Assembly (NCBI GenBank): GCA_041665545.1
Contig: JBAYIQ010000005.1
Span: 1 to 58,197 of the forward strand
Reading direction: 5' to 3'
Origin: Patescibacteria group bacterium
Lineage (GTDB): Bacteria; Patescibacteriota; Patescibacteriia; UBA1558; GWA2-36-10
Length of the DNA: 58,197 bases
Made by a program: the position numbers and the translations under genes
Notes under the pieces: model-generated
Seen by the model: only the letters and a program-made list of their open reading frames with translations
What the model was told of the DNA's origin: nothing
Database searches by the model: none
Shown here: positions 2,471 to 55,310 of the stretch, one piece after another
Numbering within the stretch: the first letter of the stretch is position 1
Layout of the letters: the number at the start of each line of letters is the position of its first letter

Positions 2471-4663
2471 ATGTCAAAATTAATTATTGTCGAGTCCCCA
2501 ACCAAAGCCAAAACTATCAGTGGTTTTTTGGGAAAAGAATATAAAGTGGAGTCTTCCTATGGCCATGTCCGAGATTTGCCTGTCAGCAAGCTCGGTGTTG
2601 ACGTGGAAAATAATTTCGAACCCACCTATGCCGTGCCAACCAAAGCCAAAAAAACCGTGGCCAATTTGAAAAAATTAGCCAGTAAGGCCGAGATGGTCTA
2701 CTTCGCGACTGACGAAGACCGTGAAGGAGAAGCTATTAGCTGGCACTTACAAGCATTGCTTGGTGTACCCGTCAAAAAGCAAAAAAGAATTGCTTTTCAT
2801 GAAATTACCAAAAAAGCTATTCAACAGGCCTTGGAAAATCCCCGCGACTTGGATAGTTTTTTGGTTGATGCTCAACAAGCGCGTCGCATCCTTGATCGCC
2901 TAGTCGGCTACAAGCTCTCTCCTCTACTTTGGAAAAAAGTAGCCAGAGGTCTATCAGCCGGACGCGTGCAATCAGTGGCTGTCCGATTGATAGTAGAAAG
3001 AGAAGACGAAATCAAAAAATTCGTGGCCCAAGAATATTGGACCATCGAGGGGCAAGCTGAACATGATAAGCAAGATTTCAAAATAACTGTCTTCCAACAT
3101 CAGGGCAAAACTTTGGATAAATTTGATTTGGATAAAACCAAAGCCGAAACTGCGGTTCGTGAAATAACTCCAGCCAAACTATTGGTCAGACAAGTAGAAG
3201 CCAGAGAAATCAACAAAAAGCCAGCTAGCCCTTTTACCACCTCCACCCTCCAACAAGATGCCAACCGTCGTTTTGGCTACTCGGCCAAGCAAACTATGAT
3301 GCTGGCTCAACAGCTATATGAAGGTGTGCATTTGGGCAGTGAAGGACATGGCGGTTTGATTACTTACATGCGTACTGACTCCCAAAATTTGTCCGCTGAC
3401 TTTGTGACGTCAGCTAATGAATGGATTGTCAAAAACTTTGGTGAGCAATATGCTAGTCAGGGCGGACGCAAATATCGCACCAAAGCCAAGCTAGCCCAAG
3501 AAGCCCATGAGGCCATCCGTCCAACTGATGTGACCAACACGCCTGACAAAGTAAAAGAATATTTGGATAGCCGCCAACACAAATTGTACTCCCTGATCTG
3601 GCAACGCTCTGTGGCTTCCCAAATGGTTGATGCCACTTTAGAAACCACTTCAGTAATAATTGACGCTAAAAACACGGAGTGGACTTTGAAAGCCACTGGC
3701 TCAGTAATCAAATTCCCTGGCTGGCAAAAAGTATATGCCACTGGCAGTGAAGAAAATATTTTACCAGCGCTCAAAGAAAACGATCAGGTGAACTTAAAAA
3801 ATCTGGATGCTCTGCAACACTTTACCATGCCACCTGCTCGCTACTCAGAAGCTGGCCTAGTCCACGCCATGGAAAAACTCGGCATTGGCCGACCTTCTAC
3901 CTATGCCCCGACTATTGCCACTATCGTGGAAAGAAAATATGTTGATAAAATAGAAAAAAGATTGGCCCCCACAGAAATTGGCACTGTGGTCAATAAACTT
4001 CTAGTGGAACACTTCCCCGATATAGTTGACTACAACTTTACAGCCGAGATGGAAAATGACTTAGACAAAATTGCTGAGGGCAAGAAAAAATGGCAACCAG
4101 TGATAAAAGAATTTTATGAACCATTTGCAAGACAATTAGCTATGAAAGAAAAAGAAATAGACAAAAAAGAAATTACAGAAACAGCCACTGACGAAATTTG
4201 CGAAAAATGCGCTTCGCCAATGGTTATCAAACTTGGCCGCTTTGGCAGGTTCTTAGCTTGCACCAATTATCCGGATTGCAAGAATACCAAGCCCCTAGGA
4301 GAAAACGGTGAAGCCCAAGAGCCAGAAAAAACTGACGAAGTCTGCCCCAAATGCAACTCGCCCATGATTTTCAAAACCGGGCGCTTTGGCAAATTCTTGG
4401 CCTGCTCTAATTATCCCGAATGCAAAACCACCAAGCGCGTGGAGCAAGGTACTGGCGTCATCTGCCCCAAGTGCAACAAGGGCGAGATGGTCGCTCGCAA
4501 AGGACGTGGCGGAAAATTCTTCTACACCTGCAACAAATATCCAGAATGTCAGCATATCACTTGGAGTAAACCAACTGGCGAGTACTGTCCCGAATGCAAA
4601 CAACTCTTAATCGCTGGACCAAAAGACACAGTCAAGTGCGAAGCTTGCGATTATACTAAATAA
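2471..4663 (+). CDS. topA: DNA topoisomerase I
   Basis: 730 aa. Has a TOPRIM start (LIIVESPTKAKTI), the catalytic Tyr region (GLITYMRTDS) and four C-terminal CxxC...CxxC zinc ribbons. Confidence 0.95.
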   Translation: MSKLIIVESPTKAKTISGFLGKEYKVESSYGHVRDLPVSKLGVDVENNFEPTYAVPTKAKKTVANLKKLASKAEMVYFATDEDREGEAISWHLQALLGVPVKKQKRIAFHEITKKAIQQALENPRDLDSFLVDAQQARRILDRLVGYKLSPLLWKKVARGLSAGRVQSVAVRLIVEREDEIKKFVAQEYWTIEGQAEHDKQDFKITVFQHQGKTLDKFDLDKTKAETAVREITPAKLLVRQVEAREINKKPASPFTTSTLQQDANRRFGYSAKQTMMLAQQLYEGVHLGSEGHGGLITYMRTDSQNLSADFVTSANEWIVKNFGEQYASQGGRKYRTKAKLAQEAHEAIRPTDVTNTPDKVKEYLDSRQHKLYSLIWQRSVASQMVDATLETTSVIIDAKNTEWTLKATGSVIKFPGWQKVYATGSEENILPALKENDQVNLKNLDALQHFTMPPARYSEAGLVHAMEKLGIGRPSTYAPTIATIVERKYVDKIEKRLAPTEIGTVVNKLLVEHFPDIVDYNFTAEMENDLDKIAEGKKKWQPVIKEFYEPFARQLAMKEKEIDKKEITETATDEICEKCASPMVIKLGRFGRFLACTNYPDCKNTKPLGENGEAQEPEKTDEVCPKCNSPMIFKTGRFGKFLACSNYPECKTTKRVEQGTGVICPKCNKGEMVARKGRGGKFFYTCNKYPECQHITWSKPTGEYCPECKQLLIAGPKDTVKCEACDYTK

Positions 4664-11331: not shown

Positions 11332-12087
11332 TTAGTCGCCTATTTCAATACCCACTGGACAATGATCTGAGCCCAAAACCTCATTTAAAATAAACGCTTG
11401 CTTTATTTTTTTTATAATATTTTTTGAGACACAAAAATAATCAATGCGCCAACCCACATTTCTGACCCTAGCTCCAGCCCGATAGCTCCACCAAGAGTAC
11501 TGAATTTTATTAGGATGAAGCATACGATACGTATCTTTGAAACCAGAGAAAAAAAATTTATCCATCCACGCTCGCTCTTGAGGACTGAAGCCAGCACTAT
11601 GAATATTTTCTTTTGGCCGAGCCAAATCAATTTCCTGATGAGCCACATTAAAATCGCCACAAACTATTAGTGGTTTTTTTGTGGCTAATTTTTTTAAATA
11701 GGCCAACAACTTGTCATTCCATTTTATTTTCCAAGGCAGACGCCTCAAATCATCTTGAGCATTAGGAAAATAAATATTTACTAAATAATATTTGCCGATA
11801 TCCAAAACCAATATTCTACCCTCATCATCCCATGATAATTTTGGCAGGGCTCTGGCCACCAAACCATCTCTGACCAAAATTGCTGTGCCACTATATCCTG
11901 GCCTTTCCGCTGGATTCCAAAACTCTTGATAGCCCGCAAAATCAAACTGCTCTTTGTCTCTGGCGCTATGTGATATTTTTATTTCCTGCAAACACAAAAA
12001 ATCGCTTTGGGATTTTTTTAGAAAACTAATAAATCCTTTTTTAACAATTGCCCTAATACCATTTACATTAAACGATAAAATTCGCAT
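11332..12087 (-). CDS. xth: Exodeoxyribonuclease III / AP endonuclease
   Basis: I trimmed the start to MRILSFNVNGIRA..., the canonical ExoIII N-terminus. The C-terminus has SDHCPV. The 12 extra codons in the ORF track (to 12123) run into an inverted-repeat element. Confidence 0.85.
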   Translation of the reverse strand: MRILSFNVNGIRAIVKKGFISFLKKSQSDFLCLQEIKISHSARDKEQFDFAGYQEFWNPAERPGYSGTAILVRDGLVARALPKLSWDDEGRILVLDIGKYYLVNIYFPNAQDDLRRLPWKIKWNDKLLAYLKKLATKKPLIVCGDFNVAHQEIDLARPKENIHSAGFSPQERAWMDKFFFSGFKDTYRMLHPNKIQYSWWSYRAGARVRNVGWRIDYFCVSKNIIKKIKQAFILNEVLGSDHCPVGIEIGD

Positions 12088-12193
12088 CCCGTTAGAAATT
12101 CTCTTTACACTTTTTTCTGCCATAAAATTAAATATACCCTATTATTTTACTGATGATTATACGGCCTGCTAAAATAAATTTCTAACGGGACGC
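12084..12193. repeat. ~110-bp inverted-repeat intergenic element, copy B
   Basis: Arms are GCATCCCGTTAGAAATT (12084-12100) and AATTTCTAACGGGACGC (12177-12193), with one mismatch. The left arm contains the xth ATG. Confidence 0.8.
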
Positions 12194-12382
12194 ATAAAAA
12201 TTATTTTACTTTTTGTTGTCGCACTGTCAAACTACGCCGAATTATAAAATTCGAGGGGGTGCGGTAAGCAGGCCGTCCTTTTCTATTGCCAACTTTATGG
12301 TGCTGTTTCATGTTATAATTATAGCACATCATTGAATAATGACTCTATTACAGTAGCCAAGCGGGTTAATGAGATAGTGGCA

Positions 12383-12542: not shown

Positions 12543-12629
12543 GCCGAAGTGGCGGAACTGGCAGACGCGCTGGACTCAAAATCCAGTGACCGCAAGGTCG
12601 TGGAGGTTCAAGTCCTCTCTTCGGTACCA
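12543..12629 (+). tRNA. tRNA-Leu(CAA), class II, CCA encoded
   Basis: Cloverleaf folded by hand. Acceptor GCCGAAG/CTTCGGT, anticodon loop CTCAAAA, long variable arm, T-loop TTCAAGT. Confidence 0.9.
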
Positions 12630-12784
12630 CTCGATTCGCCTTTTGCTTCGCAAAAGTCTCACTCGCGGTCTACGGTGCTTATCGCACCTCCGACCATTTC
12701 ACAATAAATAATCGAGTGCCCTGCCATTCGGCCCTGAGGGGCCTCAGGCCCTGAACGGGAGCGAACGAAGTGAGTCGAAGGGCA
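12630..12784 (+). ncRNA. Conserved structured RNA directly 3' of CCA, copy 1
   Basis: Long-range stem CACTCGATT / AATCGAGTG that includes C75-A76 of the tRNA. Hairpin CTTTTGC-TTC-GCAAAAG. Hairpin GGTC..GGTGC-TTATC-GCACC..GACC. A further GC-rich hairpin has a GAGCGAACGAAGTGAGTCGA core. Confidence 0.6.
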
Positions 12785-12796
12785 TAAACAATTTCA

Positions 12797-12843
12797 GGGC
12801 CGTTAGCTCAGTTTCGCCCACAGGGCGACCACCCAGTGGGTGG
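12797..12843 (+). ncRNA. Leader module: copy of tRNA-Ala nt 1-17 plus two GC hairpins
   Basis: GGGCCGTTAGCTCAGTT (12797-12813) is identical to 12895-12911. It is followed by TCGCCC-ACA-GGGCGA and CCACCC-AGT-GGGTGG. Confidence 0.6.
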
Positions 12844-12894
12844 GGCTAGTCATGTTGATTTGCTCATTAAAGTTTTTACAAAAAATTATTCTTT

Positions 12895-12971
12895 GGGCCG
12901 TTAGCTCAGTTGGCTAGAGCGCTTCCATGGCATGGAAGAGGTCGCAGGTTCGACCCCTGTACGGTCCACCA
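12895..12971 (+). tRNA. tRNA-Ala(GGC), CCA encoded
   Basis: 77-nt hand-folded cloverleaf with the G3:U70 identity pair and anticodon loop ATGGCAT. Confidence 0.9.
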
Positions 12972-13061
12972 TAAACCATTCGCTACGCTCAGGTTTATGG
13001 CACTGCCATTTTATTTAGGGCAGCGCCGTGAACTTGAGGAGCGTAAGCGACGAATAGTTCA

Positions 13062-13138
13062 CGGGGTGTGGCGCAGTTGGCTAGCGCGCACGCATGGGGT
13101 GCGTGAGGCCGGAGGTTCAAGTCCTCTCACCCCGACCA
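13062..13138 (+). tRNA. tRNA-Pro(GGG), CCA encoded
   Basis: 77 nt. Acceptor CGGGGTG/CACCCCG, anticodon loop ATGGGGT with G37. Confidence 0.9.
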
Positions 13139-13155
13139 ATTTATAAATTAATCGG

Positions 13156-13233
13156 GGCAGGGTAGCTCAGTTTGGTTAGAGCGTGGGACTCATAAGCCCG
13201 AGGTCGTGGGTTCGATCCCCACCCCTGCTACCA
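13156..13233 (+). tRNA. tRNA with CAU anticodon (elongator Met or Ile2; not resolvable by eye)
   Basis: 78 nt. Acceptor GGCAGGG/CCCTGCT, anticodon loop CTCATAA. Positions 31:39 are an A-G mismatch. Confidence 0.8.
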
Positions 13234-13342
13234 CTCGATTCGCCTTTTGCTCCGCAAAAGTCTCACTCGTGGTCTCCGGTGCTTATCGCACCTCCGACCA
13301 TTCTCCATATCATGAATCGAGTGTTCCGAGCGAAGTCGAGGG
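13234..13342 (+). ncRNA. Conserved structured RNA directly 3' of CCA, copy 2
   Basis: Near-identical to copy 1 across the core (CTCGATTCGCCTTTTGCTCCGCAAAAGTCTCACTCGTGGTCTCCGGTGCTTATCGCACCTCCGACCATT...GAATCGAGTG), plus a GAGCGAAGTCGA hairpin. Confidence 0.6.
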
Positions 13343-13406
13343 ACATGAGATAAAGAGAAGCGCATCGAGGGACACGAGAAATCACCATTCTCCAAAAAAA
13401 AACGGT

Positions 13407-13652
13407 ATGAAAAAATTTTTCTTTTATTTTGCCCGATGTAACGATAATACCCTTTATGCTGGTTACACAAATAATATAAAAAATAGAGAAATAAAACACA
13501 ACGACGGTAAGGGCGCAAAATACACTAAATGTAGATTACCAATAAAAATAATATACTGGGAGAAATTTGATACCAGGATTGAAGCCATGAAACGGGAAGC
13601 ACAAGTAAAACGTTGGAGTAAAATAAAAAAAGAAAAATTAATAAAAAATTAA
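13407..13652 (+). CDS. Mini GIY-YIG nuclease-family protein (81 aa)
   Basis: MKKFFFYFARCNDNTLYAGYTNNIKNREIKHN... has GIY-YIG-type motifs (LYAGYT, R..H, and a Glu in REAQVKRWS). I trimmed the track ORF 13206..13652 to the Met after the tRNA and its trailer. Confidence 0.7.
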   Translation: MKKFFFYFARCNDNTLYAGYTNNIKNREIKHNDGKGAKYTKCRLPIKIIYWEKFDTRIEAMKREAQVKRWSKIKKEKLIKN

Positions 13653-13722
13653 ATTTTTTACGACGCGGGGTAGCCCGCCCGGCACGCCTACGGCGAAGCC
13701 GTGGCGGACGGGAGCAGTACCA
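13653..13722 (+). ncRNA. Leader module: 21-nt copy of the tRNA-fMet 5' flank plus nt 1-10, then a GC-rich nested hairpin
   Basis: ATTTTTTACGACGCGGGGTAG (13653-13673) is identical to 13987-14007. The following CCCGCCCGGCACGCCTACGGCGAAGCCGTGGCGGA aligns with the Leu module. Confidence 0.6.
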
Positions 13723-13736
13723 CACTGAATATGCAT

Positions 13737-13985
13737 ATGAAAATATTACTTTTTTATACTTATGTCCTAAAAAGTAAAAAAGATAACAAATTGTATGTTG
13801 GATATACCGATAATCTAAACAAAAGAATCCAAAAACATAATGATGGAAAAGTTGAATCAACAAAAAATAGAAGACCATTTACATTATTATATTTTGAAGC
13901 TTGCCTAGATAAGTATAAAGCAATAAAAAGAGAAAAATATTTTAAAACGGGCTTTGGTAGGAGATTTTTAAAAAGTAGGATATAA
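13737..13985 (+). CDS. Mini GIY-YIG nuclease-family protein (82 aa), paralogue
   Basis: MKILLFYTYVLKSKKDNKLYVGYTDNLNKRIQKHN... with GIY-YIG-type motifs. It lies entirely between the 21-bp direct repeats that flank the tRNA-fMet 5' end. Confidence 0.7.
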   Translation: MKILLFYTYVLKSKKDNKLYVGYTDNLNKRIQKHNDGKVESTKNRRPFTLLYFEACLDKYKAIKREKYFKTGFGRRFLKSRI

Positions 13986-13997
13986 TATTTTTTACGA

Positions 13998-14073
13998 CGC
14001 GGGGTAGAGCAGTTGGCAGCTCGCCAGGCCCATAACCTGGAGGTCGCCGGTTCGAGTCCGGCCCCCGCTACCA
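13998..14073 (+). tRNA. Initiator tRNA-fMet(CAU), CCA encoded
   Basis: 76 nt. C1xU72 mismatch and an A11:U24 pair (initiator hallmarks). Anticodon loop is CCCATAA, so position 33 is C rather than U. Confidence 0.85.
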
Positions 14074-14117: not shown

Positions 14118-14703
14118 ACATTTACATCGTGTATGTGGTATACTTATTGATGTATGCCAGATACAAGAAAATATGTCGATCGTGCTGAGTATTTAAAACA
14201 AGCAGTTGCTAAACGTCGTAAAGATGTGAAAATAATGCTTGTAAAATATAAGGGCGGTAAGTGTAAGACTTGTGGCTATAAAAAATCCGTAGAAGCTCTT
14301 GAGTTCCATCATATAAATGAAAGAAAAAAGAAGTTTGGAATTTCTGGGCAAGGATTAACTAGATCTTGGAAAAGTGTAAAGCAGGAAGCTGATAAATGCA
14401 TCTTGCTTTGCGCAAATTGCCACAGGGAATTGCACGCAAAATAGTGCAGCTTCCTCAAGTAATTGAGGTTGACAAACGGGGTGAACTGTCCCGCAAAACG
14501 GGAGCCCGCCAAAGGCGGTGCCGGGAAGCCTAAGTCTAAAAGATATGGTAATCCGCAGCCAAGCCCTGAACCAGATGGTTCAGGGAAGGTTCAGAGACTA
14601 TCCGAAAGGAGTAGGCAGTATTTACTAGCCGAAGCGCCCCGCATCCTAAAAAATTATAGGATGATGATATAGTCCATCCCTTTAGGAAACTTAAGGATCG
14701 ATG
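14118..14703 (+). mobile_element. Group I intron carrying an HNH ORF
   Basis: The 5' exon ends in U and the intron ends in G. Core strings CCGCAGCCAAGCCC (14553-14566), GTTCAGAGACTA (14589-14600) and GATATAGTCC (14666-14675) match the conserved catalytic-core blocks of Tetrahymena/Azoarcus-type introns as I remember them. I did not confidently identify P1 or the internal guide sequence by eye, so boundaries are accurate to within a few nt. Confidence 0.75.
14154..14444 (+). CDS. HNH homing-endonuclease-like protein (96 aa), intron-encoded
   Basis: CKTCGY...LEFHHINE...LLCANCHRELH is an HNH motif with two CxxC pairs. The ORF lies wholly inside the intron. Confidence 0.8.
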   Translation: MPDTRKYVDRAEYLKQAVAKRRKDVKIMLVKYKGGKCKTCGYKKSVEALEFHHINERKKKFGISGQGLTRSWKSVKQEADKCILLCANCHRELHAK

Positions 14704-20031: not shown

Positions 20032-21818
20032 TAGCGCTGTAGTTTAGTTATTTCCTTATTTAATAAATTAATTTTATGGGTAATTTGGTCTTGAGTTATT
20101 GTGTCATTTTTTAGTTCGGCCTGACGCAATTGCTCAATCAAAAGCTGACGGCGCTCTTGGAATCTGTTGCTTTTCAATCTTTCCAGAGAAACATTGAAAT
20201 TGCTGTCTAGCTCCTGACCCGATAAATCAGCCATGTTTTGCTCAGCTGACATTAGTAGACGAATATACTGCTGTTTGGCCTCGACTTCCAGTTCGGGCCA
20301 ATCAATAAAATTATCTAAATTATGTTGCTTAGTATAATAGATTATTACCTTTCTGTAAAGATCTAGCAAGTCCGCTTCCATCATTTCTGGCTCCAGCTCA
20401 TTGACCAGGCGCTCCAGATAATTGTTTCGAAAAAATACAATTCCTAATAATTCTTCACTCAAAAAACTGACACTTGGTTTTTTGATGGCTATGACTTTCT
20501 TTTCGGGGCGAACATTTTCCAAGAAACTGCTGACTTGCTTGAGATCACTTTGCAAAATATCTAAAGGCAAATGCAACTTGTCAGCCAATAATTGCAAATA
20601 ATGAGATTGTTCAACCGCGCTTTTTAAATATTTTATAATCGGTAATAATTTTTGCACGGCTATTTTTTTGTGATCAGCCCGATTCAAGTCCACACCAGAT
20701 AAAATTCGCTGAAAATAATAATCCATCACTTGTATAGAATCACGCACCAATTTCAGCCATAAATTTTTATCGCTCTTTACTATGTCAGCTGGATCTTGAT
20801 TTTGTGGCAAGACCAAAATTTTCATATTCATTTCTTGAGCCCAGGCCAAAGTAATACTGCGCAAAGCGGCATTGGAGCCAGCTGTGTCACCATCAAAAGC
20901 CAAAATAACATTGTTGGTATAGCGCTTGATCAACTTCAAGTGATCAATGGTTAAAGCTGTGCCAGAAACTGCCACGGTATTAGTAGTGCCAGCTTGCTGA
21001 CTCAAAATCGCGTCAAGATTGCCTTCCACAATAATCAAATAATTTTTTTGCTTGATGGTGGCTTTGGCCAAGTGCCAACCATACAGTATTTTGCTTTTGT
21101 CATAAATATTGGTTTGCGGACTATTGATATACTTGCCACCAAAATCTTCGTCATGATAAACAATACCCTGCAAAGTGCGCGAAGTAAAAGCCACCACTCG
21201 CCCAGCTGTATCAAATATTGGAAACATCAGTCGCTTGCGAAAGCGATCCACGTAGCCACTGCCATCTTTTTTCTTTACTGAAATGCCAGCTTGAAAAATA
21301 TCGGTATCCGAAAATTTCTTGGCTTTCAAATACTGCAGAGCTTCATCCCAAGACTCGGTACTTAAGCCCAGACCCCATTTTTTTATACTGTCCGTAGTCA
21401 AACCCCGAGACAAAAGATAGTCCAAAACTTTGGCGCTGGTTTCATTTTTATCAAAAAGATTGCTCTGATATTTTTCCGCAATCAAATGATTTATTTCAAA
21501 CAAAAGATTAAAATTTTCCTTGGGTAATGATTGATAGCCAGCCAAAGAAACATTGGCTTTCTCGGCCAACAGCTTGATGGCTTCCGAAAAACTCAAACCC
21601 TCATATTCTTGAATAAAAGTAAAAATATCTCCGCCCTTGCCACAGCCAAAACAATGCCAAATTTGCTTTTCCCGAGAAACCATAAAACTGGCGGTCTTTT
21701 CATTATGAAAGGGACAACGCGCTTTGAGGTTGGAGCCAGTCGAATTCAAGGTGATATATGTGGAGATAATGTCGGCTACATCCAACTTGGCTTTTATTTC
21801 TTCAACCGGGTTCTGCAT
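20031..21818 (-). CDS. dnaG: DNA primase
   Basis: 595 aa. Zinc ribbon [11 protein letters not shown]...CFGCGKGGD and TOPRIM ([18 protein letters not shown]). The stop overlaps the rpoD start (TAATG). Confidence 0.95.
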
Positions 21819-21927
21819 CCCGTTAGAAATTTAAATAATTAAACATATAACTAAAAAAATAAAATTTATCAATAAACCCATTATTTTTTCCACTAAACCT
21901 AGTTTAATGAATTTCTAACGGGATGCA
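21814..21927. repeat. ~110-bp inverted-repeat intergenic element, copy A
   Basis: Perfect 18-bp arms TGCATCCCGTTAGAAATT (21814-21831) and AATTTCTAACGGGATGCA (21910-21927). The left arm contains the dnaG ATG (21816-21818). Confidence 0.85.
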
Positions 21928-21959
21928 TAAGCTTATATTAGGTGAAATACGATTTTTAG

Positions 21960-21998
21960 TCAAAAAGAAAGGCGCTCGAGAGGGGTTTCTCGAGCGCC
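21960..21998 (-). terminator. Terminator of ORF 22028..22444
   Basis: 10-bp stem GGCGCTCGAG / CTCGAGCGCC, followed on the minus strand by TTTCTTTTT. Confidence 0.7.
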
Positions 21999-22027
21999 GT
22001 GGATTGTTGTCGGCTACTGGCCCGCGC

Positions 22028-22444
22028 CTAGGCGTGGACCTGGTAGACCGAATTGCCCCGAGCCGACTTCCAGCTGTCCGCCGATCCGTCGCGGACCAGC
22101 GCTTCGAGGTTGGACCTCACCAACTGGAACAGAAAGAAGTTCCGCTTCTCCCACCGATAGAGGCGCCGCATGACCATGCCAGCGGTCATGGGATGCCTCG
22201 CCCTCTGCATGAGCACGAGCACGCGCTCGCTCATGGGCTGATCGACCATGATCGGCGTGAACTTGACCTCGATGGCCACACCGTCCAGTTCTCCGACGGC
22301 GAGGATCGACGCCGGACGACGATCGCGCGCCCTGCGGATGAACCTCTCGGCCACGGGGAAGACCTTCCCAGCGAAGATCGCGGGCACAGTGATCGAAAGC
22401 ATGATGATGGCGATGATGAGCACGAAAATCTCGATCGGATTCAT
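22028..22444 (-). CDS. Hypothetical membrane-anchored protein (138 aa), possibly with a winged-helix-like C-terminal part
   Basis: GGAGG lies 4 nt upstream of the ATG. There is one N-terminal TM helix (IEIFVLIIAIIMLSITVPAIFA) and the coding sequence is GC-rich. The wHTH idea rests only on the look of ERVLVLMQRARHPMTAGMVMRRLY and is weak. Confidence 0.5.
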   Translation of the reverse strand: MNPIEIFVLIIAIIMLSITVPAIFAGKVFPVAERFIRRARDRRPASILAVGELDGVAIEVKFTPIMVDQPMSERVLVLMQRARHPMTAGMVMRRLYRWEKRNFFLFQLVRSNLEALVRDGSADSWKSARGNSVYQVHA

Positions 22445-22552
22445 GACGCCTCCAATGGCTTGGGACCAGGAACAGTGACCTATATCACATTCATTGGCCT
22501 TTTATGGCCAAAATGCTTCGAAATTAATGCTTGATGAACTGTAAAACAGTAT

Positions 22553-22581
22553 ATCATAGCACAAAAAATAAAAGTTGTCAA
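22553..22581 (-). promoter_or_regulatory. Sigma70-type promoter for ORF 22028..22444
   Basis: Minus strand: TTGACA (22576-22581), 17 nt, TATGAT (22553-22558). Confidence 0.6.
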
Positions 22582-22596
22582 GCCACGGTTAAAAAT

Positions 22597-22627
22597 AACC
22601 TTCGAGGTTGCCATAACCTCGAAGGTT
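22597..22627. promoter_or_regulatory. Perfect 13-bp palindrome between the divergent promoters
   Basis: AACCTTCGAGGTT, spacer GCCAT, AACCTCGAAGGTT. It is extended by CACGG / CCGTG outer pairing. Confidence 0.5.
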
Positions 22628-22678
22628 GGCCGTGTCTACTAGTATTGCACTGATTTGTTGAACCCACGCTACAAACAC

Positions 22679-22707
22679 TTGACAAAATATTATTATTATG
22701 ATAGTAT
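22679..22707 (+). promoter_or_regulatory. Sigma70-type (extended -10) promoter for the NfeD-like/flotillin pair
   Basis: TTGACA (22679-22684), 17 nt ending in TGA, then TAGTAT (22702-22707). Confidence 0.5.
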
Positions 22708-22869
22708 AAAATGTTTTGACCAAATAGCAAAAAATTGAGCTTTTGGTTAAACCAAAAGTTCTTTGAAATGTCATACATCACTCGTAAAAACAACTAATAA
22801 GATCGAGTTTTCTGTCCACAAATCCTATGGCCACAGTGTCAGTGCAACCACGTAACGAAAGGAGTTTCG

Positions 22870-23460
22870 ATGGAACACCAGCAGACCTTCTGGCACATGC
22901 TGGGGAACGACGTGGGGATGATGACGTTCGCCGTTCTGGGCTTCATTGGCGGAGTGTTCACTTTGATCACTCTGGCCTTCGGCCACGGCGACCACAACAT
23001 CGACCACGACTTCAGCGCGGGCGACCACGACTTCAGCGCGGGCGACCACGACAACAACGCCGGCCCGAACGTGTTCTCGTTCCGCAACATCATGCTCTTC
23101 GTCACCGGCTTCGGTGGAATCGGCATGCTGGCCAAGTACCATGGCGCAAGCTTCATTGTGAGCAGCCTCTGGGGCGCTTTCTCTGGCTTCATCATGGCAT
23201 TCGTCGGCTACCTGATCTACCGCGCCCTGTACAAGAGCCAGGCGACCTCGCACATCGACAACTGTTCGCTGTGCGGTTCGATCGCTCTGGTCGAACAGGC
23301 CATCGTCGCTAACGGCATGGGTATCATCGTGGCCGGAGGCGAGATTGGCCACCTCGTTCGCCTCCAAGCCAGAACGAAGGAAGGAACCCCGGTCGCAAAC
23401 GGCCGACAGGTCCGCATCCTGAATATCAACGGGACCGAAGCTCTGGTCGAGGCCCTCTAA
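22870..23460 (+). CDS. YqiJ/NfeD-like membrane protein
   Basis: 196 aa with AAAGGAG upstream. Architecture: TM helix, acidic His/Asp repeat (HGDHNIDHDFSAGDHDFSAGDHD), further TM helices and a beta-rich C-terminal tail. This matches NfeD/YqiJ partners of SPFH proteins, and the gene sits directly upstream of a flotillin gene. Confidence 0.65.
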   Translation: MEHQQTFWHMLGNDVGMMTFAVLGFIGGVFTLITLAFGHGDHNIDHDFSAGDHDFSAGDHDNNAGPNVFSFRNIMLFVTGFGGIGMLAKYHGASFIVSSLWGAFSGFIMAFVGYLIYRALYKSQATSHIDNCSLCGSIALVEQAIVANGMGIIVAGGEIGHLVRLQARTKEGTPVANGRQVRILNINGTEALVEAL

Positions 23461-23503
23461 TCCCTGCTCCAACACACCACCGTCTTCCCAAAGGAGTATC
23501 AAG

Positions 23504-25228
23504 ATGGAACAGTCCGCACACTTCATGCAGTACCTGATCCCCGCGATCATCCTGTTCGTGCTGATCGCCTTTCTGGGTGTGATCCGCCTGGCGGCCAAGA
23601 ACTACATCAAGGTGGCCCCGAACGAGGTGGCCATCATCAGCGGCAGCCGTCACAAGACGACGGTCACGCTGCCCGGCAAGGAGAACGAGCCCCCCACTAC
23701 GGTGGTGCGCGGATACAAGCTGGTCACCGGTGGCGCCTTCTTCAAGGTGCCGATCCGCGATCGGGTCGAGATCATGAAGCTCAATCTGATCCAGATCATT
23801 GTCCAGGTCACCAACGTGCCCGCCCTCAACGGCGTGCGCGTGACGGTCAAGGGCATCGCCAACATCAAGATCCTCTCCGACCAGGCCTCCCTGGCTCTGG
23901 CCGTGGAGCGCTTCCTGGGGAACAACCTCAGCGAAGTGGAACGTGTGGCCAATCAGAACCTGGAGTCCAACCTCCGCGCCGTCGTCGGCACGATGACGGT
24001 CGAGGATCTGATCCGGGACCGGGCACAGCTCCAGGCCCAGATCCTCCGGGAAGCGGTCAGCGACATGTCCAAGATGGGTCTCGGTGTGGACCTGATGAAC
24101 GTCCAGGAGATCACGGACGAGAACGGGTACATCGAGGCCCTGGGCATGGCGCGAACCGCCGAGGTCAAGCGCGACGCAACCATCGGCAAAGCCGAGGCCC
24201 AGCGTGACGCCGACATCCGTTCCGCGGAAGCCGGACGGCTGGGCGAGACGGCCAAGGCCGTGGCTGCACAAGCCATCTCGGATGCGCAGAAGGCCAAGGA
24301 TATCCGCGTTGCCGAGAACGAGAGTCTGGTCAAGGCACAGCAGGCCAGGATCCCGATCATTGCGGAGCAGGCTCGAGCCGAGGAACAGAAGGCGCTCAAC
24401 ATCAAGACCGTCGAGGCCGATCGTGCCAAGACCGAAGCCGAGATCGCCCTGCAGCAAGCGGCTCAGCGCCGGCACGAGGCCGAGCTGAACGCAACTACGA
24501 TCATTCGGGCCACGAAGGACAAGGAGGCCCTAGTCATCGCTGCCGAGGCCAAGGCCCTGGCGGCGGAACGGGAAGGCGAAGCCTACCGCATCCAGCACGA
24601 GATGGAAGGCAAAGGTGACCAGGCCAAGCTGACTGCTGTGGCTCAGGGACGCAAGGAAGCGGCGGCGGCTACCCAGACCGAACTGGAAGCCGCGGCTGCC
24701 GGTAAGAAGGCCGGACTGCTGGCTGACGCCGAGGGTGTCAAGCAGAACGGTCTGGCCAGGGCTGCCGGAGTCGAAGCCGTTGGTGTGGCTGAGGCCACGG
24801 CTTCGGCCAAGAAGGCTGAGGCTTACACCCTGCTTGATGCCAAGGGCATCATGCTCATGCTGCTCCAGCTGTCGCCGGACGTCATCAAGGCGCTCGGCGT
24901 GGCTGTCGGCGACGCCATCAAGCCGTCGGCAGATGCCATCGGACAGGGCCTGGGTAACATCAAGGAACTGCGCATGGTGGATCTGGGTGGCGGTTCGGCT
25001 GGCGGGGCTGGCGGGGGCAATGTCCTCAATCAGTTCGTCAACCAGCCCATCCAGACCTTGTATGGCCTGATCGAACGGATGAAGGCCACGGGCATGGCAC
25101 CGGCGTTCATGAAGCTGGCCAAGGAGAAGCTCGGGCTGGATCTCACGGACGTCTTCGCTGGTGCTCCTACCCAGACGACGTCGGACGACACGCACAAGAA
25201 GGGTGGTGATGACACGGCTACGGCTTAG
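23504..25228 (+). CDS. Flotillin-like SPFH/band-7 protein (YqiK/FloT-like)
   Basis: 574 aa with AAGGAG 7 nt upstream. N-terminal membrane hairpin, an SPFH core (NYIKVAPNEVAIISG...GIANIKI) and a long Ala/Glu/Lys/Arg-rich coiled-coil region. Confidence 0.85.
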   Translation: MEQSAHFMQYLIPAIILFVLIAFLGVIRLAAKNYIKVAPNEVAIISGSRHKTTVTLPGKENEPPTTVVRGYKLVTGGAFFKVPIRDRVEIMKLNLIQIIVQVTNVPALNGVRVTVKGIANIKILSDQASLALAVERFLGNNLSEVERVANQNLESNLRAVVGTMTVEDLIRDRAQLQAQILREAVSDMSKMGLGVDLMNVQEITDENGYIEALGMARTAEVKRDATIGKAEAQRDADIRSAEAGRLGETAKAVAAQAISDAQKAKDIRVAENESLVKAQQARIPIIAEQARAEEQKALNIKTVEADRAKTEAEIALQQAAQRRHEAELNATTIIRATKDKEALVIAAEAKALAAEREGEAYRIQHEMEGKGDQAKLTAVAQGRKEAAAATQTELEAAAAGKKAGLLADAEGVKQNGLARAAGVEAVGVAEATASAKKAEAYTLLDAKGIMLMLLQLSPDVIKALGVAVGDAIKPSADAIGQGLGNIKELRMVDLGGGSAGGAGGGNVLNQFVNQPIQTLYGLIERMKATGMAPAFMKLAKEKLGLDLTDVFAGAPTQTTSDDTHKKGGDDTATA

Positions 25229-25280
25229 TAGAACTGACTGTCTCTGACGGTCTGAACTCTGAGCCAAAGCTTTCATAGAG

Positions 25281-25352
25281 GGGAGGCGGTGCTACACAGC
25301 ACCGCCTCCCACTCCAAAACAAGAGGGATCTTTCGTAACCCCTCTTTTTTTA
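25281..25352 (+). terminator. Tandem hairpins/terminator after the flotillin gene
   Basis: 13-bp stem GGGAGGCGGTGCT-ACAC-AGCACCGCCTCCC, then AGAGGG...CCCTCT followed by a T-run. Confidence 0.65.
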
Positions 25353-25400
25353 TTTTTTAACCAAAATAAAAAGGGTACTCCCTAATTACACTGTCAACAC

Positions 25401-45605: not shown

Positions 45606-46079
45606 TTAATCATCTTCTTCCTCATCATCATTGCCAACCACATTAGTATTTTGATTTGTGTTAGCTGGTGGTATGGCCACCGCATCTGTAGAAACAGTTG
45701 ATCCGATTATACCGATCTTGTAACTAGCCAAAATATTGCTAGCATTAGCCGAATGACCCTGAGTAGCAAAGGCAGCGGCAATATCGCCTCCGCAATATTT
45801 AATAATGTTTGATTGCCCACCGGGATGTGATTTTATATATGATGTCACATTATAGACATTATTGCCAGCTGTCACCCAGCAGTCAGAAGCCATATTGTGT
45901 TGGGTTACTATAGCAGTAGTTAGAGTATATGTCACTGGCGCGATATTGGCAGGATTGTTGGTTAATAAATTTCCTAGGTTGGTTAAACTTCCATTATTTT
46001 GTCTTACTAAACTATTAACAAAAAAAATGCTGACTGCTCCCCAAAAGATAAATACCGCTATAATTATTATTTTATTCAT
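45606..46079 (-). CDS. Membrane-anchored cytochrome b5-like haem-binding domain protein
   Basis: 157 aa. N-terminal TM helix, HNMASDCWVTAGNNVYNVTSYIKSHPGG (the b5-type HPGG motif) and an acidic C-terminus. Confidence 0.65.
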   Translation of the reverse strand: MNKIIIIAVFIFWGAVSIFFVNSLVRQNNGSLTNLGNLLTNNPANIAPVTYTLTTAIVTQHNMASDCWVTAGNNVYNVTSYIKSHPGGQSNIIKYCGGDIAAAFATQGHSANASNILASYKIGIIGSTVSTDAVAIPPANTNQNTNVVGNDDEEEDD

Positions 46080-46187
46080 CCGGTTAGAAATTTAAATAAT
46101 TAAACTTTTTATAACTAAAGTAAAATTTTGCTAAATAATTTTTATACATATTTCTAAATATTATCCCGTGAATTTCTAACGGGATGA
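46076..46187. repeat. ~110-bp inverted-repeat intergenic element, copy C
   Basis: Arms TCATCCGGTTAGAAATT (46076-46092) and AATTTCTAACGGGATGA (46171-46187), with one mismatch. The left arm contains the ATG of ORF 45606..46079. About 45 nt of the interior is shared with copy A. Confidence 0.85.
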
Positions 46188-46196
46188 ATATATTTA

Positions 46197-48260: not shown

Positions 48261-48265
48261 ATTTT

Positions 48266-48402
48266 ACCCCGTTAAATAATTTTTATCGGGTCCAGCTCGA
48301 TAAAAATTAAATTTAATTAATAATAATTAAAAAATTGAATTGTTATAATTATTTTTTTGGTTTATTTTTATGCCCCAATAAATTAAATTTATTTAACGGG
48401 GT
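48266..48402. repeat. Related inverted-repeat intergenic element, copy D (longer and diverged)
   Basis: Arms ACCCCGTTAAATAA (48266-48279) and TTATTTAACGGGGT (48389-48402). It fills the cca-mscL spacer from the cca stop codon to 5 nt before the mscL ATG. Confidence 0.6.
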
Positions 48403-49970
48403 TAATCTGTTAATAATAACTTTTCTAATTTACCCATGGCCTCTGTAACGTCTTTTATGCCAGATAATACTTGAATAATATCTTCCTGACTAAAACCACG
48501 ATTATCTCTCAATTCTCTACTCAAATATATCAAGCGCCCAATCTCTGGACCAGGGGCAAAGCCCATTTGCAAAAAATCTCTACCCCACATTATCTCTGGC
48601 GCCACTTGTCGATCAACGCCAATACTTTCAGCTTTAGCTATCAACCACTCAACTAATTCTTTTATCTTTTCCTTATCTTCTCTTCGAGTAGCTCGATAGT
48701 CAGCTTCTGACAAAAAAGCTGACTCTCTGATACTAGACGGCGCCAAATCTCTAGCCAAACGACGAAAAACACCATCTTTTATTTCACGATTTTGCAACAT
48801 GTCATTATACAAATACATCGGTCTCATGTGATGACGCACCAAAGGCAAAACTCGTGCTTCTGTGGCCCCATCTACCCTGATGCTGTCTAAAAAAACTTTA
48901 GTCAAACCAACGCTGGCCAAATCGTGACCGTGAGCAATTATTTTTCCGTCTTTTTCCTCGGTTGTTTTTGCTTTACCCAAATCATGACACAGAGTAGCCA
49001 GCATCAAAGGCCATATTTCCTGATCAGTTAATTTCTCTCGCCTAGCAATGTCCATCATTTCATCAACCGCCAACAAAGTATGCTCCCAGACATTACCTTC
49101 CGGATGAATTTTGGGGTCTTGTGGCGTTTCCTGCAAAGCTAAAAATTCTGGATGCAACTCTTTAAAAACGCCTAGCTCCACACCGGCTTGCAAACCCCTT
49201 GATGGTTTATCGGATTTTAACAAAAGCTTACGCCATTCTTCATAAATTCTCTCCTCTGATAAATGTTTTAAACTATCAGCCATGCTGCTCATCACTCGAC
49301 GACTATCCTCATCCATAGTCAAATCAAAGCGACCAATCATTTGCATGGCTCGCAATACTCTAACTGGATCTTCGGAAAATGTTTTTTCGTCGACAATCCG
49401 CAAAGTTTTATTTTTTAAATCATCTATTCCGTGATATGGATCAAATACTTGTCCAGTCAATGGATCAGCTAAAATAGCGTTGATGGTAAAATCACGACGC
49501 CGTGTTGCCTCGGATATTGACATATAAGGATCAGACTGTGCGGAAATGCCCCTTCCACGCTTTGATTCAGTTTTTGAATCGCGACGCGGTAATGACACAT
49601 CAATCTCAAAGCCGTCTTTGATAGAAAGTTTAAGAACGCTAAAGGCTTTTCCCACTTCCCCTAAACGACCAAAAGGTCGTAATAAACCTTCCAATTTATC
49701 TGCTTCTAAACCATAGACTTCAATATCAAAATCTTTTGATTCTACATCGAGCAATATATCTCGCACACTACCGCCAACCAGCAAAGCGCGTCCGCCAGCT
49801 TCCTGAACGGCCCGACAGATTCTTGTCACAGCTTCGTAAGTTTCGGCCTGTTTTTCCAAACCCCTTTCCTGCCATTCAGCAATATAGTTTTCAGGCAAAG
49901 CCAAACTGACAGCCGTGTCATCCACTTCCTTGGTTGGAATAATTTTTTCTGGTGTTTCTGAATTTGGCAT
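48402..49970 (-). CDS. cca: CCA-adding tRNA nucleotidyltransferase with an HD domain
   Basis: 522 aa with LLVGGSVRDILL...DFDIEV (the nucleotidyltransferase motif) and an HD region (LCHDLGK). Confidence 0.8.
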   Translation of the reverse strand: MPNSETPEKIIPTKEVDDTAVSLALPENYIAEWQERGLEKQAETYEAVTRICRAVQEAGGRALLVGGSVRDILLDVESKDFDIEVYGLEADKLEGLLRPFGRLGEVGKAFSVLKLSIKDGFEIDVSLPRRDSKTESKRGRGISAQSDPYMSISEATRRRDFTINAILADPLTGQVFDPYHGIDDLKNKTLRIVDEKTFSEDPVRVLRAMQMIGRFDLTMDEDSRRVMSSMADSLKHLSEERIYEEWRKLLLKSDKPSRGLQAGVELGVFKELHPEFLALQETPQDPKIHPEGNVWEHTLLAVDEMMDIARREKLTDQEIWPLMLATLCHDLGKAKTTEEKDGKIIAHGHDLASVGLTKVFLDSIRVDGATEARVLPLVRHHMRPMYLYNDMLQNREIKDGVFRRLARDLAPSSIRESAFLSEADYRATRREDKEKIKELVEWLIAKAESIGVDRQVAPEIMWGRDFLQMGFAPGPEIGRLIYLSRELRDNRGFSQEDIIQVLSGIKDVTEAMGKLEKLLLTD

Positions 49971-53417: not shown

Positions 53418-55310
53418 TTATTGAGCAATTTTTGATAAGTCGCTATCAGTAATACCCAAAGATCTGAAGCGCATAATCTGATAAGCGGCCTCACCGTCTC
53501 TCATATAATAACGTTTACCGTCACTTGGATCGATGTACCAAGCCTCACCGCGGGATTGCACTTGAAGCACGATCTTACCTTTTAACCTGTTGGCCAATGC
53601 ATTATCACTACTCAAAACACCAGTTCCCAAAGGATTAGTGCCGGCCAAAATTTCAGCCCTATCACTGACACCATCACCATCGGTATCGGATTTATTTATA
53701 TCAGTGCCCAAGCCCTGCTCTAGTTTATTACCCAAACCATCACCATCAATATCATTATCACTGAAACGATCTTCAAAACCAATTGGTATTTTAGCTAAAT
53801 CATCATTAGTAATACCCAAGCCCGCCTCACGCATCAAACTATAAGCAGTAGTTCCGTCTTTTAGATAAAATCTTTTATCATCTTTGGGGTTGACATACCA
53901 AGCTTCGCCATGACTTTCGACCTGCAAAAGTATGCGGCCTCTAACTCTGCTCATTAAATTTTTATCCGCTCCTTGATTCATAATTCTCTCCTGTTCTCTA
54001 TTTTGAACACTGTTACCATTGTCGGCGACGCACACTCCCTCTTTATCACCGTGAGCCAAGTGAACAGCCAAAGCGCTTTGAGCAATCTCCAAAGTGTTTG
54101 TTTTACCATTGCCTACAACATGGCAAACTTTTATTTTATTATCAATCAAAACTCCGCCACCTAGAGTAGTGAAATTAATAGTAGTAGGATTGCCATATCT
54201 ATAGCTCACCTCACCAGCAACACCAGCAACTGATTTTACTTCGATGTAGTATTTTGTAAATGGTTGCAAATTATTTAAAGTAACCATACTGGCATTATAA
54301 TTTCCTGTGGCCTCGGGGCCATTCAAAACACCAGTATTAACCCAAGCCAAACCAGCCAAGGCGTCCGTGCTGGTTGCATAGCGATAATAACCATCACTAC
54401 TCATGTTAACTACTTGCCAATATACTCTGGCTGACTTTAGAGCAAGTTGATCTACTCTAGTTTTAGCAATGTCCAAGGCAGAGGTATAGTAACCCATGCT
54501 ACCAGGTACAAAGGTCAAAATCTTAGCTAGACCATACTGTGTGCCTAAAAATTTTCTGACTTGAATATAGTAAGTAGCCCCCGCCTCTAAGCCACTCAAA
54601 TCTACCTGGCTACCAAACATATTGCCAGTGACTTCTGGACCATTACTGACACCATCGCTGCGCCATGGTAAGTTGTTTAATTCACTTTGATTTTTGGAAT
54701 AACGATATTCCCCACTACTGCCAACACCAGCTCGCCAATATACACGAGTGACTGTATCTGAAATATTAGTAATTCTGCTCTCGGCAATGACTAAATATTG
54801 TGAGAAGTCAGTAATAGTTGGTGCACATCTAAAATTGGCCTGGCACCAAGAATTACTCTGATAATTAGAGGTATAAAGAGCACTGTCCGCCAGATCATGA
54901 ATGCCATCATTATTCACATCAAAAGTGCCCGCGCAACCAGCATAGAGCGCCACGTCGCTTAAATTTCGTGCGCCGTCATTATTTATATCACAAACAGCAA
55001 GACCAGTATCTGTGGTATTGCTAGAGGCCGTGGTGGCTGAACATCTAAAATTGGTCTGACACCAGGAATTACTCTGATAATTAGATGAGTATAGGGCATT
55101 GTCTATCAGATTGTGTACACCATCATTATTCACATCAAAAGTGTCCGCGCAACCAGCATAGAGTGCCACGTCGCTTAAATTTCGTGCGCCGTCATTGTTT
55201 ATATCACAAACAACTGGGCCGCTGTCAGCAGTGCCCGCTGGGGCAGTAGCCAAACTAAAACCTGGCAGAGCCATGGTCATCACCATCAGTGTAAAAAATA
55301 GTTTTTTCAT
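53418..55310 (-). CDS. Secreted multi-domain protein with dockerin-like and thrombospondin-type-3-like Ca-binding repeats
   Basis: 630 aa with a signal peptide. Two ~75-aa repeats each have two D.N.DG.....D loops. Two FN3-like segments follow. Also DNDIDGDGLGN...DTDGDGVSD, and two copies of a GEAWY..P.D.KR.Y..DG motif. Confidence 0.65.
   Translation of the reverse strand: MKKLFFTLMVMTMALPGFSLATAPAGTADSGPVVCDINNDGARNLSDVALYAGCADTFDVNNDGVHNLIDNALYSSNYQSNSWCQTNFRCSATTASSNTTDTGLAVCDINNDGARNLSDVALYAGCAGTFDVNNDGIHDLADSALYTSNYQSNSWCQANFRCAPTITDFSQYLVIAESRITNISDTVTRVYWRAGVGSSGEYRYSKNQSELNNLPWRSDGVSNGPEVTGNMFGSQVDLSGLEAGATYYIQVRKFLGTQYGLAKILTFVPGSMGYYTSALDIAKTRVDQLALKSARVYWQVVNMSSDGYYRYATSTDALAGLAWVNTGVLNGPEATGNYNASMVTLNNLQPFTKYYIEVKSVAGVAGEVSYRYGNPTTINFTTLGGGVLIDNKIKVCHVVGNGKTNTLEIAQSALAVHLAHGDKEGVCVADNGNSVQNREQERIMNQGADKNLMSRVRGRILLQVESHGEAWYVNPKDDKRFYLKDGTTAYSLMREAGLGITNDDLAKIPIGFEDRFSDNDIDGDGLGNKLEQGLGTDINKSDTDGDGVSDRAEILAGTNPLGTGVLSSDNALANRLKGKIVLQVQSRGEAWYIDPSDGKRYYMRDGEAAYQIMRFRSLGITDSDLSKIAQ

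Follow-up and report, generated by a model that had tools for sequence, protein, structure and literature searches.

Small inverted-repeat elements of a Patescibacteria contig: a probable transposon family that rebuilds start codons

Four related elements in the window

The sequence studied here, which we call the window, is a 58-kb metagenomic contig (JBAYIQ010000005.1, 58,197 nucleotides) of a bacterium from the Patescibacteria, or candidate phyla radiation (CPR). The same DNA is JGI contig Ga0376277_0002854, and an ENA assembly contains it unchanged. Four of its spacers hold short elements, A, B, C and D, which are bounded by inverted repeats and measure 104–135 bp, making 4 copies in 58 kb. 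They lie upstream of dnaG, of xth, of a cytochrome b5-like gene (the b5 gene) and of mscL, respectively; among the genes concerned, Pfam confirmed xth, Cyt-b5, a NOX-like ferric reductase and the CCA-adding enzyme. Below we argue that A, B and C, together with the variant D, very probably represent a non-autonomous cut-and-paste transposon, i.e., a miniature inverted-repeat transposable element (MITE), whose ends rebuild start codons and bring start signals along.

An earlier note on this DNA, made from the sequence alone, had described three pairs of shared inverted-repeat arms, and they are indeed present. With at most 1 mismatch, the 16-mer AATTTCTAACGGGATG matches the window six times, in three inverted pairs, whereas 0.6 matches are expected by chance and none of 100 shuffled sequences reached six. 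A, B and C have in common the 14-bp terminal inverted repeats TCCCGTTAGAAATT...AATTTCTAACGGGA; the inverted repeats of the window reach 17–21 bp with flanks included, the canonical repeat alone being 14 bp long. All seven occurrences of TAACGGG in the window fall within arms of A, B, C or D, and the four arm pairs (I1, I4, I5 and I6) are among the six longest inverted repeats of the window. The same TAACGGG core is found in the arm of D (CCCCGTTAAAT), which the note had rightly seen as a longer, diverged relative and which we assign to a variant subfamily. As had also been noticed, A and C share their gene-proximal ~45 nt.

Copy A is a 106-bp element upstream of dnaG (21818–21923, minus strand), with its gene-proximal terminal repeat TCCCGTTAGAAATT at 21818–21831 and its distal repeat AATTTCTAACGGGA at 21910–21923, both read from the sequence. 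Base 21818 is at once the end of the element and the A of the dnaG ATG. The inner target-site duplication TGCA (21814–21817) now forms bases 2–5 of the dnaG coding sequence, while the outer one, TGCA at 21924–21927, makes together with base 21928 a stranded old ATG (21926–21928, minus strand). Six nt upstream of this old ATG, in leaderless geometry and now beyond the outer arm, lies the native dnaG promoter TTGACT-17-TAATAT (21935–21963, minus strand), which is preceded by an intrinsic-terminator-like hairpin (21971–21998, minus strand) ending a GC-rich island.

Copy B, 104 bp long, lies upstream of xth (12087–12190, minus strand), and its base 12087 is the A of the xth ATG. Its inner target-site duplication (12083–12086) reads CGCA on the plus strand and TGCG in the sense of the gene; the outer one is CGCA at 12191–12194. 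An internal in-frame ATG (12123–12125) has TATATT with a 7-nt gap ahead of it, and the old xth ATG (12193–12195, minus strand) is preceded by TAAAAT in the same manner, again 7 nt away. Copy C, of 106 bp, is placed between the NOX-like gene and the b5 gene (46079–46184, minus strand), with base 46079 as the A of the b5 ATG; its proximal repeat has one mismatch (CCGG), and its flanks, TTCA at 46075–46078 and TGAA at 46185–46188, are inverted and form no direct duplication. Thus the CAT of the left arm is the start codon in A, B and C alike, as the earlier note had claimed, and the DnaG and Xth N-termini read from the fused ATGs look like canonical starts. Copy D (CCCCGTTAAATAA...TTATTTAACGGGG) is a 135-bp variant between the cca stop and mscL (48267–48401, minus strand), flanked by TTTA (48263–48266) and TTAA (48402–48405), the latter containing the TAA stop of cca. 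It fills the spacer from the cca stop, as the note had said, but ends 6 nt and not 5 nt ahead of the mscL ATG.

A dispersed family with target-site duplications and empty sites

One genome per GTDB species was scanned for GTTAGAAATT-N60-90-AATTTCTAACSGG, a pattern with ~1 chance match expected, and more than 114 loci were found among the matches listed. The matches listed (loci L003–L116) and the window gave 117 non-redundant copies. The CPR hosts carry many labels, among them Moran-, Kerfeld-, Yanofsky-, Buchanan-, Campbell-, Wolfe-, Giovannoni- and Tagabacteria, Saccharibacteria and Kazan. Among the first 80 loci, 17 are labelled as metagenome-assembled genomes (MAGs) of Planctomycetota, Omnitrophota, Desulfobacterota-type bacteria or Gammaproteobacteria. 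In one of them, L048, the flanking gene encodes formate-tetrahydrofolate ligase (fhs), whose 91–97% identical homologues are named Sedimentisphaerales, Phycisphaerae or Planctomycetota; since the names of these closest homologues agree, we regard the planctomycete host of L048 as real. Several copies can occur on one contig in other MAGs (e.g., MGJA01 and CAVZKT01).

Across the 117 copies the termini read Y-CCCGTTAGAAATT...AATTTCTAACGGG-R, with Y and R complementary. The terminal pair is T/A in 52 copies and C/G in 50, and it is uniform within every genome with several copies. The canonical repeat is YCCCGTTAGAAATT and the family core 5'-YCCCGTTA(G/A)A. The arms are nearly always paired (138 pairs vs 43 mostly degenerate solitary arms), and they alone are conserved, the interiors being unrelated between genomes. 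Canonical copies measure 88–118 bp, a range bounded by the design of the search, and variants 45–135 bp. Two real variant copies on L158, a phage-like IMG/VR contig, came from a later core-motif search of the fetched loci. Two scans of viral contigs with 14-mer arms returned almost solely solitary chance matches and serve as a negative control for pairing, and a 23-mer specific to A and C had no match in metagenome contigs, the source sample evidently lying outside that collection.

Other forms of the family were seen as well. On the Omnitrophota contig L023 (1510–1622) a canonical arm pair encloses an apparently complete tRNA gene and not an AT-rich spacer; it would be a MITE with tRNA cargo. 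L182 carries minimal derivatives at 3246–3324 and 3963–3990, one of them a 29-bp palindrome made of the repeats only (CCCCGTTAGAAATC-C-AATTTCTAACGGGG), and L324 has two tandem 49-bp D-type elements (978–1079) with arms as in D.

Identical 4-bp flanks border 67 of the 117 copies, whereas permutation of the flanks gave 10.1 ± 2.8 (maximum 21 in 10,000 trials). The flanks mostly conform to TNNA (83 of 117 on the left and 85 of 117 on the right, against a background of 7.6%), and the duplication is most often TGAA/TTCA. A fifth-base rule also emerged, in that the right-hand duplication tends to be followed by the base with which the element itself begins. This base is C for 24 of the 37 C-type copies and T for 15 of the 28 of T type (Fisher p = 2e-6), and the rule may reflect recognition of an R-TNNA-Y target mimicking the junction of element end and flank. 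In a few copies (window 46075–46188, L051, L070 and L076) the flanks are inverted (TTCA...TGAA or TAAA...TTTA). Judging from the empty site in L121, copy C should have TGAA on either side; its outer flank seems to have been converted, possibly via hairpin-templated repair, with a lengthening of the hairpin.

The mobility of the element is seen directly in relatives, where the comparison of orthologous spacers that the earlier note had recommended yielded exact empty sites. The dnaG site in relatives with 96–98% identical DnaG reads AAGCTTATGCAGAACCC, also ...TAATATAAGCTTATGCAGAACCC, that is, AAGCTT-A-TGCA-GAACCC, and the filled site of the window reads AAGCTTA-TGCA-[106 bp]-TGCA-GAACCC. Copy A is absent from L117, L121 and L122 and present in L123 and L124 (a 97% relative), where its outer duplication has mutated to TGTA. 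The NOX–b5 site is empty in L121 and L123, with a spacer of 12–29 bp, and the nucleotide alignment breaks exactly at copy C. At cca–mscL, L325 has a 9-bp spacer without D, whereas D is present in L323 and L324. Planctomycete fhs offers a further pair: the empty site CCTATGAAGCTTGAC in relatives versus CCTA-TGAA-[element]-TGAA-GCTTGAC in L048. Copy B is older, an orthologous, partly decayed copy being found upstream of xth in the 83% relative L119. A special constraint on D was considered, for D is 97% identical to its counterparts in L323 and L324 and cca only 80–82%; another spacer, however, is 99% identical, so that the conservation of D is not distinctive. Overall, both kinds of evidence to which the note had tied its proposal, further copies in genomes and empty sites in relatives, were found.

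These data bear on the idea that the inverted repeats are a cis-regulatory RNA hairpin kept by the host, such as a translational attenuator or a processing site, and not mobile DNA. Folding predictions give hairpins of great stability (dG −27 to −39 kcal/mol, z-scores −3.9 to −6.4), the start codon lies within the stem, and the end bases co-vary as T/A or C/G. Yet a host-kept hairpin hardly accounts for presence that varies among 96–98% identical relatives with exact empty sites, for 4-bp flanking duplications that differ from copy to copy or for interiors unrelated between genomes; moreover, the variable pair shows no G-U enrichment, the genes behind the element are unrelated to each other, and Rfam returned nothing at gathering thresholds, with only two chance-level matches to microRNA precursors (E ~0.4). 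We consider this explanation very improbable.

The duplications speak equally against REP/REPIN repeats mobilised by a RAYT (IS200/IS605-like Y1) transposase. The geometry is similar, with two inverted repeats of ~15–20 nt lying ~80 bp apart in intergenic, multicopy elements, but REP/IS200-type elements make no target-site duplications, and here 4-bp duplications of variable sequence are found. As read from the sequence, single arms are not self-complementary and have no GTAG head; the window holds no RAYT-like gene. A REPIN origin thus seems slightly less probable still than a regulatory hairpin. Even less credible to us is an inverton, in which a recombinase would flip the segment between the repeats and so switch the downstream gene. 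It would agree with the ~78-bp AT-rich segment with promoter-like sequences that lies between inverted repeats beside a gene start, and with the fact that both arms end in the same leader-plus-ATG, so that each orientation would present one; Correia elements, moreover, are reported to invert (PMC10969869). However, the interior keeps the same orientation in every comparison of a small sample (window vs L001 and L002; A in L123 and L124; B in L119; D in L323 and L324). Two of the genes that would be switched, dnaG-rpoD and xth, have housekeeping roles, invertons are not characterised by target-site duplications or empty sites, and there is no recombinase gene nearby. We conclude that A–D belong to an apparently undescribed family of mobile DNA in many CPR bacteria and Planctomycetota.

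The GC-rich island next to copy A (22000–25400, GC 0.51–0.65 vs ~0.40 elsewhere) lies between a DUF5671 gene and dnaG and carries an SPFH/Band_7 gene (23504–25228) as well as open reading frames (ORFs) without a Pfam match. It is absent from L117–L119, where DUF5671 or, in L119, an ogt-like methyltransferase gene directly precedes dnaG, and L121 and L123 have shorter versions. The earlier note had taken copy A for the left border of the island, but this claim did not hold: L121 and L122 have the end of the island without the element, and what the window displays is adjacency only. The link is coincidental, and the island looks like a strain-variable insertion hotspot independent of copy A.

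Element ends, start codons and start signals

An ATG or GTG begins with the terminal purine of the element in 59 of the 117 copies, at 60 of 234 ends, compared with ~1% at random positions. Fusion was scored where this ATG or GTG opens an outward ORF of at least 60 codons; one of the 60 fused ends belongs to a spurious ORF in the GC-rich island. The suggestion of the note that the element supplies, or is fixed to, the initiation codon is thus borne out in half of the copies examined. A TGAA/TTCA duplication goes with fusion in 26 of 29 copies, whereas 13% would be expected from the non-coding TGAA sites of the same loci (p = 4e-20). Nearly all fused copies with an intact duplication (30 of 32) keep an outer A plus TGNA, that is, the old start codon, now stranded. 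Fusion is found in 45 of 58 elements of the T...A type, which restore an ATG, and in 14 of 55 of the C...G type, which yield a GTG (p = 3e-8). In one subfamily, all of the 7 copies have the same end facing the gene. Most copies also bring an in-frame stop, the TAA of TAAATT, 5 codons upstream of the start. A smaller class sits at -35-like TTGACA boxes with a -10 box 16–18 nt downstream (8 cases vs 0.7 in control registers).

Such a bias could arise if the transposase itself targeted start codons, through an extended site such as A-TGAA-Y or through promoter DNA, and did not insert at random TNNA sites followed by selection. We hold this to be possible but rather doubtful. Both demonstrably recent insertions of the window, A and C, are at start codons, which targeting would explain, as it would the excess of fusions among TGAA/TTCA insertions and the second class exactly at TTGACA boxes; the fifth-base rule suggests a recognition site longer than 4 bp. 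On the other hand, insertion is equally precise at the leaderless CPR dnaG and at planctomycete fhs, and because fhs has a long leader and a Shine-Dalgarno motif, targeting of open promoter complexes is unlikely. The 7/7 orientation bias and the excess of ATG-creating over GTG-creating fusions are what selection predicts. Besides, lethal insertions are invisible, so that survivorship alone can mimic targeting. We incline toward selection for a functional gene-proximal end, to which the start-signal motifs described below, the 7/7 polarity and the shared proximal halves of A and C all point.

A TANNNT box, typically TAAATT or TAAAAT and partly built by the repeat itself, lies 8–10 nt from the tip at 40 of 60 fused ends and at 85 of the 172 remaining ones, whereas most other offsets show it at a few percent of ends. 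Such a -10-like box would set the start of transcription 1–3 nt before the ATG. Among 30 stranded old ATGs, 12 have TANNNT 6–7 nt upstream and only 3 a Shine-Dalgarno motif. In variants, GGAGG is found in or beside the repeat: the Omnitrophota-labelled L026 reads GGAGGTCTAACGGGATG, and the planctomycete loci L027 and L059 have GGAGG just inside the arm (GGAGGAATTTCTAACGGG). The two copies on the phage-like contig L158 (4733–4777 and 9058–9117; 45–60 bp) read AAGGAGGTATCTAACGGGATG and are both flanked by a TTCA duplication. One has joined the start codon of the portal gene and the other that of a further gene in the structural region; inside each element an AAGGAGG Shine-Dalgarno motif lies 10 nt from the ATG. 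Ten of the 60 fused copies have an internal in-frame ATG, from which translation of the repeat would give ...ISNG. Among them are xth, whose MAEKSVKRISNG-MRIL is conserved in L119, and fhs, for which the gene calls of several relatives include MMQKGKISNG-VKLD. From these motifs we infer that element ends may act as promoters and ribosome-binding sites.

Many genes of this lineage and of other CPR loci have a -10 box, often the extended TGnTAnAAT, 6–7 nt before the ATG and no Shine-Dalgarno motif (21935–21963 and ~12196–12320 on the minus strand, L036, L045, L105 and L109). Among them is a basic ORF of 36 codons just ahead of xth. This suggests that leaderless mRNAs are widespread in these lineages. 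Upstream of planctomycete fhs there is a conserved leader of ~150 nt (L048 1200–1650; L326–L330), possibly a riboswitch-type 5' untranslated region, which the MITE in L048 splits from the coding sequence.

The TTGACT-17-TAATAT promoter of dnaG is conserved in relatives (L117–L121). Because this native promoter lies just beyond the outer arm, the outer arm of copy A should be transcribed. A read-through transcript from the old promoter would start with AUGCAUCCCGUUAG..., include both arms and code for a peptide of 9 codons. At the stabilities predicted above, sequestration of the start codon in such an RNA is thermodynamically plausible.

Taken together, the evidence leads us to favour, with a probability of roughly 0.85, the view that A, B, C and the variant D are a MITE that rebuilds start codons and brings start signals with it. 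We envisage the following scenario. A transposase, presumably of the DDE type, would insert the element and duplicate a 4-bp target, nearly always TNNA. The copies that persist would mostly be insertions that separated the A of a start codon from its TG (A-TGNA), in which the duplicated TGNA would remain on the side of the gene and the terminal purine would substitute for the lost A, giving ATG with T...A-ended and GTG with C...G-ended elements. The old ATG, along with the old promoter or ribosome-binding site, would be left beyond the far arm. In canonical copies with the AAATT arm, mostly from CPR, the inner repeat would form a -10-like TA(A)AATT box 8–10 nt from the tip and so yield a nearly leaderless mRNA. 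GGAGG in the repeat or adjacent bases of L026 and L158, and just inside the arm in L027 and L059, might be a replacement ribosome-binding signal, and in some copies an internal in-frame ATG would read through the repeat as ...ISNG. A transcript entering from the old promoter would contain both arms and fold into a hairpin whose 18–21-bp terminal stem would bury the start codon; since such a hairpin would do so, expression probably relies on the signals of the element itself.

Several observations weigh against this scenario. Fifty of the 117 copies have no exact duplication, and the flanks of copy C (TTCA...TGAA) are not those predicted by simple insertion into an L121-type site. The -10-like box also occurs at 49% of non-fused ends and may simply be part of the repeat that the transposase binds, and a scan with consensus promoters found none inside copy A, only the native one outside. 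Apart from L048, which was checked through its homologues, the non-CPR host labels are bin names of MAGs. Finally, no transposase-bearing parent was found in ~2.9 Mb of fetched loci among arm pairs 0.25–5 kb apart, with or without matching duplications. Candidates for an autonomous parent in L094, L128, L158 and L215 were rejected, as they enclose housekeeping, ordinary or phage genes and no transposase.

It is tempting to go further and to suppose a whole superfamily of start-codon-capturing transposons, in which an A-TGNA-targeting transposase, repeats serving as portable initiation modules and hairpin silencing of read-through transcripts would work together; we offer this only as a speculative extension, with the odds against it. 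The modules would be a -10 box in CPR, with leaderless mRNAs, and elsewhere a Shine-Dalgarno motif or a Shine-Dalgarno motif with an ATG and an ISNG leader peptide. If true, each insertion would swap the promoter and the 5' end of a gene, and the element would be a mobile device for rewiring expression across phyla and phages.

The elements are also a source of annotation artefacts, and gene callers should be watched for extending ORFs into the element or calling spurious ORFs from its outer arm. A 203-aa ORF (21923–22534, plus strand) is called from the outer-arm ATG of copy A. The xth gene (11332–12123, minus strand) is called as 263 aa and is either 12 codons too long or genuinely extended, and fhs is called as 597 aa with the 10-residue extension MMQKGKISNG (P0244 and similar proteins). 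We also considered the outer arm as the 5' end of a plus-strand gene, i.e., a divergent leader, but the 203-aa ORF crosses the minus-strand terminator and the GC-rich region, and at B and C no gene follows the outer arms.

A few further features were recorded. Downstream of a cluster of five tRNA genes (12543–14073) lies a group I intron (14473–14696; Rfam RF00028, 81 bits), in the region of which the source annotations call small GIY-YIG and HNH-like ORFs. GC-rich palindromic inserts of the GGCGGGA...CCCGCC type occur in AT-rich spacers of L323 (~3890–3960), L324 (~1450–1530) and L120 (~700–800) and are absent from the orthologous spacers of the window; they may be a second, unrelated class of small repeats. 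A 19-nt inverted repeat of the window (55292–55310 and 55444–55462; 84% complementary, arms 133 nt apart) holds in its inner arm the start codon of the gene at 53418–55310. It has no sequence similarity to the A–D family and may be due to chance.

Significance and comparison with known systems

Little is known about the mobile elements and expression signals of CPR bacteria, whose genomes are small and compact. Differing as they do between relatives with 96–98% identical DnaG, the copies are a ready marker of strain-level dynamics. They also constitute a natural experiment on the start signals of translation and transcription: one and the same element takes the place of leaderless promoters in CPR and of ribosome-binding regions in Planctomycetota, in Omnitrophota-labelled MAGs and in a phage. 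No relevant match to the arm sequence and no prior description of the family were found in the literature searched. A 2024 review of prokaryotic MITEs (PMC10969869) does not list a start-codon-rebuilding tip among their roles, nor does it contain "start codon", "leaderless" or "ribosome binding", and a survey of 183,232 genomes mentions neither Patescibacteria nor "start codon".

Small size with no room to encode a transposase, repeats of at least ~10 bp, a duplication, multiple copies and both filled and empty sites mark the element as a MITE. The likeness to Correia/ERIC-type MITEs drawn in the earlier note therefore stands as regards the type of element, given its repeats, duplications, copies and empty sites, but not as membership of the Correia or ERIC families, since the repeat differs and the target duplication, which is TA in Correia elements, is here the 4-bp TNNA. 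Correia elements of Neisseria (CREE/NEMIS) are MITEs of ~100–150 bp with perfect terminal inverted repeats that lie directly in front of genes; outward promoters can arise from their ends, RNase III processes the hairpins of co-transcribed copies, and insertions are polymorphic among strains (PMC2649163, PMC10969869). Fusion of the tip to a start codon is not among the features described in these two papers. Functionally, this is the closest system, having size, terminal repeats, location upstream of genes and strain variation in common with the A–D family. It differs in its unrelated 26-bp repeat and in being confined to one genus, whereas the present family extends over many CPR lineages, Planctomycetota and, by MAG label, other phyla.

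IS1380/piggyBac elements have repeats starting with CC(C) and a 4–5-bp TTAA-like duplication, and the tip of piggyBac, CCCTAGAAAG, resembles the family tip CCCGTTAGAAAT. piggyBac uses TTAA, and the variants TCAA, TAAA and TATG are reported. A study that takes IS1380 as prokaryotic outgroup gives CCCT-type 5' ends (PMC10813416); IS1380 members are known for strong outward promoters (PMC9330008). The (Y)CCCG tip and the 4-bp T..A duplication recall these features (PMC10813416). In our family, however, the two central target bases are free, and the element is non-autonomous and ~100 bp long. As no transposase was found in the fetched loci, a relation to IS1380/piggyBac is only a lead.

Insertion sequences with outward or hybrid promoters, such as ISEcp1 and IS1237, likewise drive the adjacent gene from their terminus (PMC9330008). 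These insert upstream of an intact gene start, whereas the A–D family replaces the first base of the start codon; unlike them, some subfamilies bring a ribosome-binding site or an in-frame ATG with ~10 codons. The latter recalls the Rickettsia palindromic elements, small palindromic mobile elements tolerated in coding sequences, including as in-frame fusions (PMC10969869), for 10 of the 60 fused copies would add an N-terminal ...ISNG extension; the Rickettsia elements, however, lie inside ORFs and the A–D family at their exact 5' boundary. REPIN and REP sequences share paired short inverted repeats, hairpins of ~100 nt, intergenic location and abundance, but depend on RAYT and make no target-site duplication, which is clear in the A–D family. 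Overall, the elements described here make up a new family of MITEs, which one may argue to be a new functional variant as well, with a wide phylogenetic range and a statistically robust habit of joining start codons.

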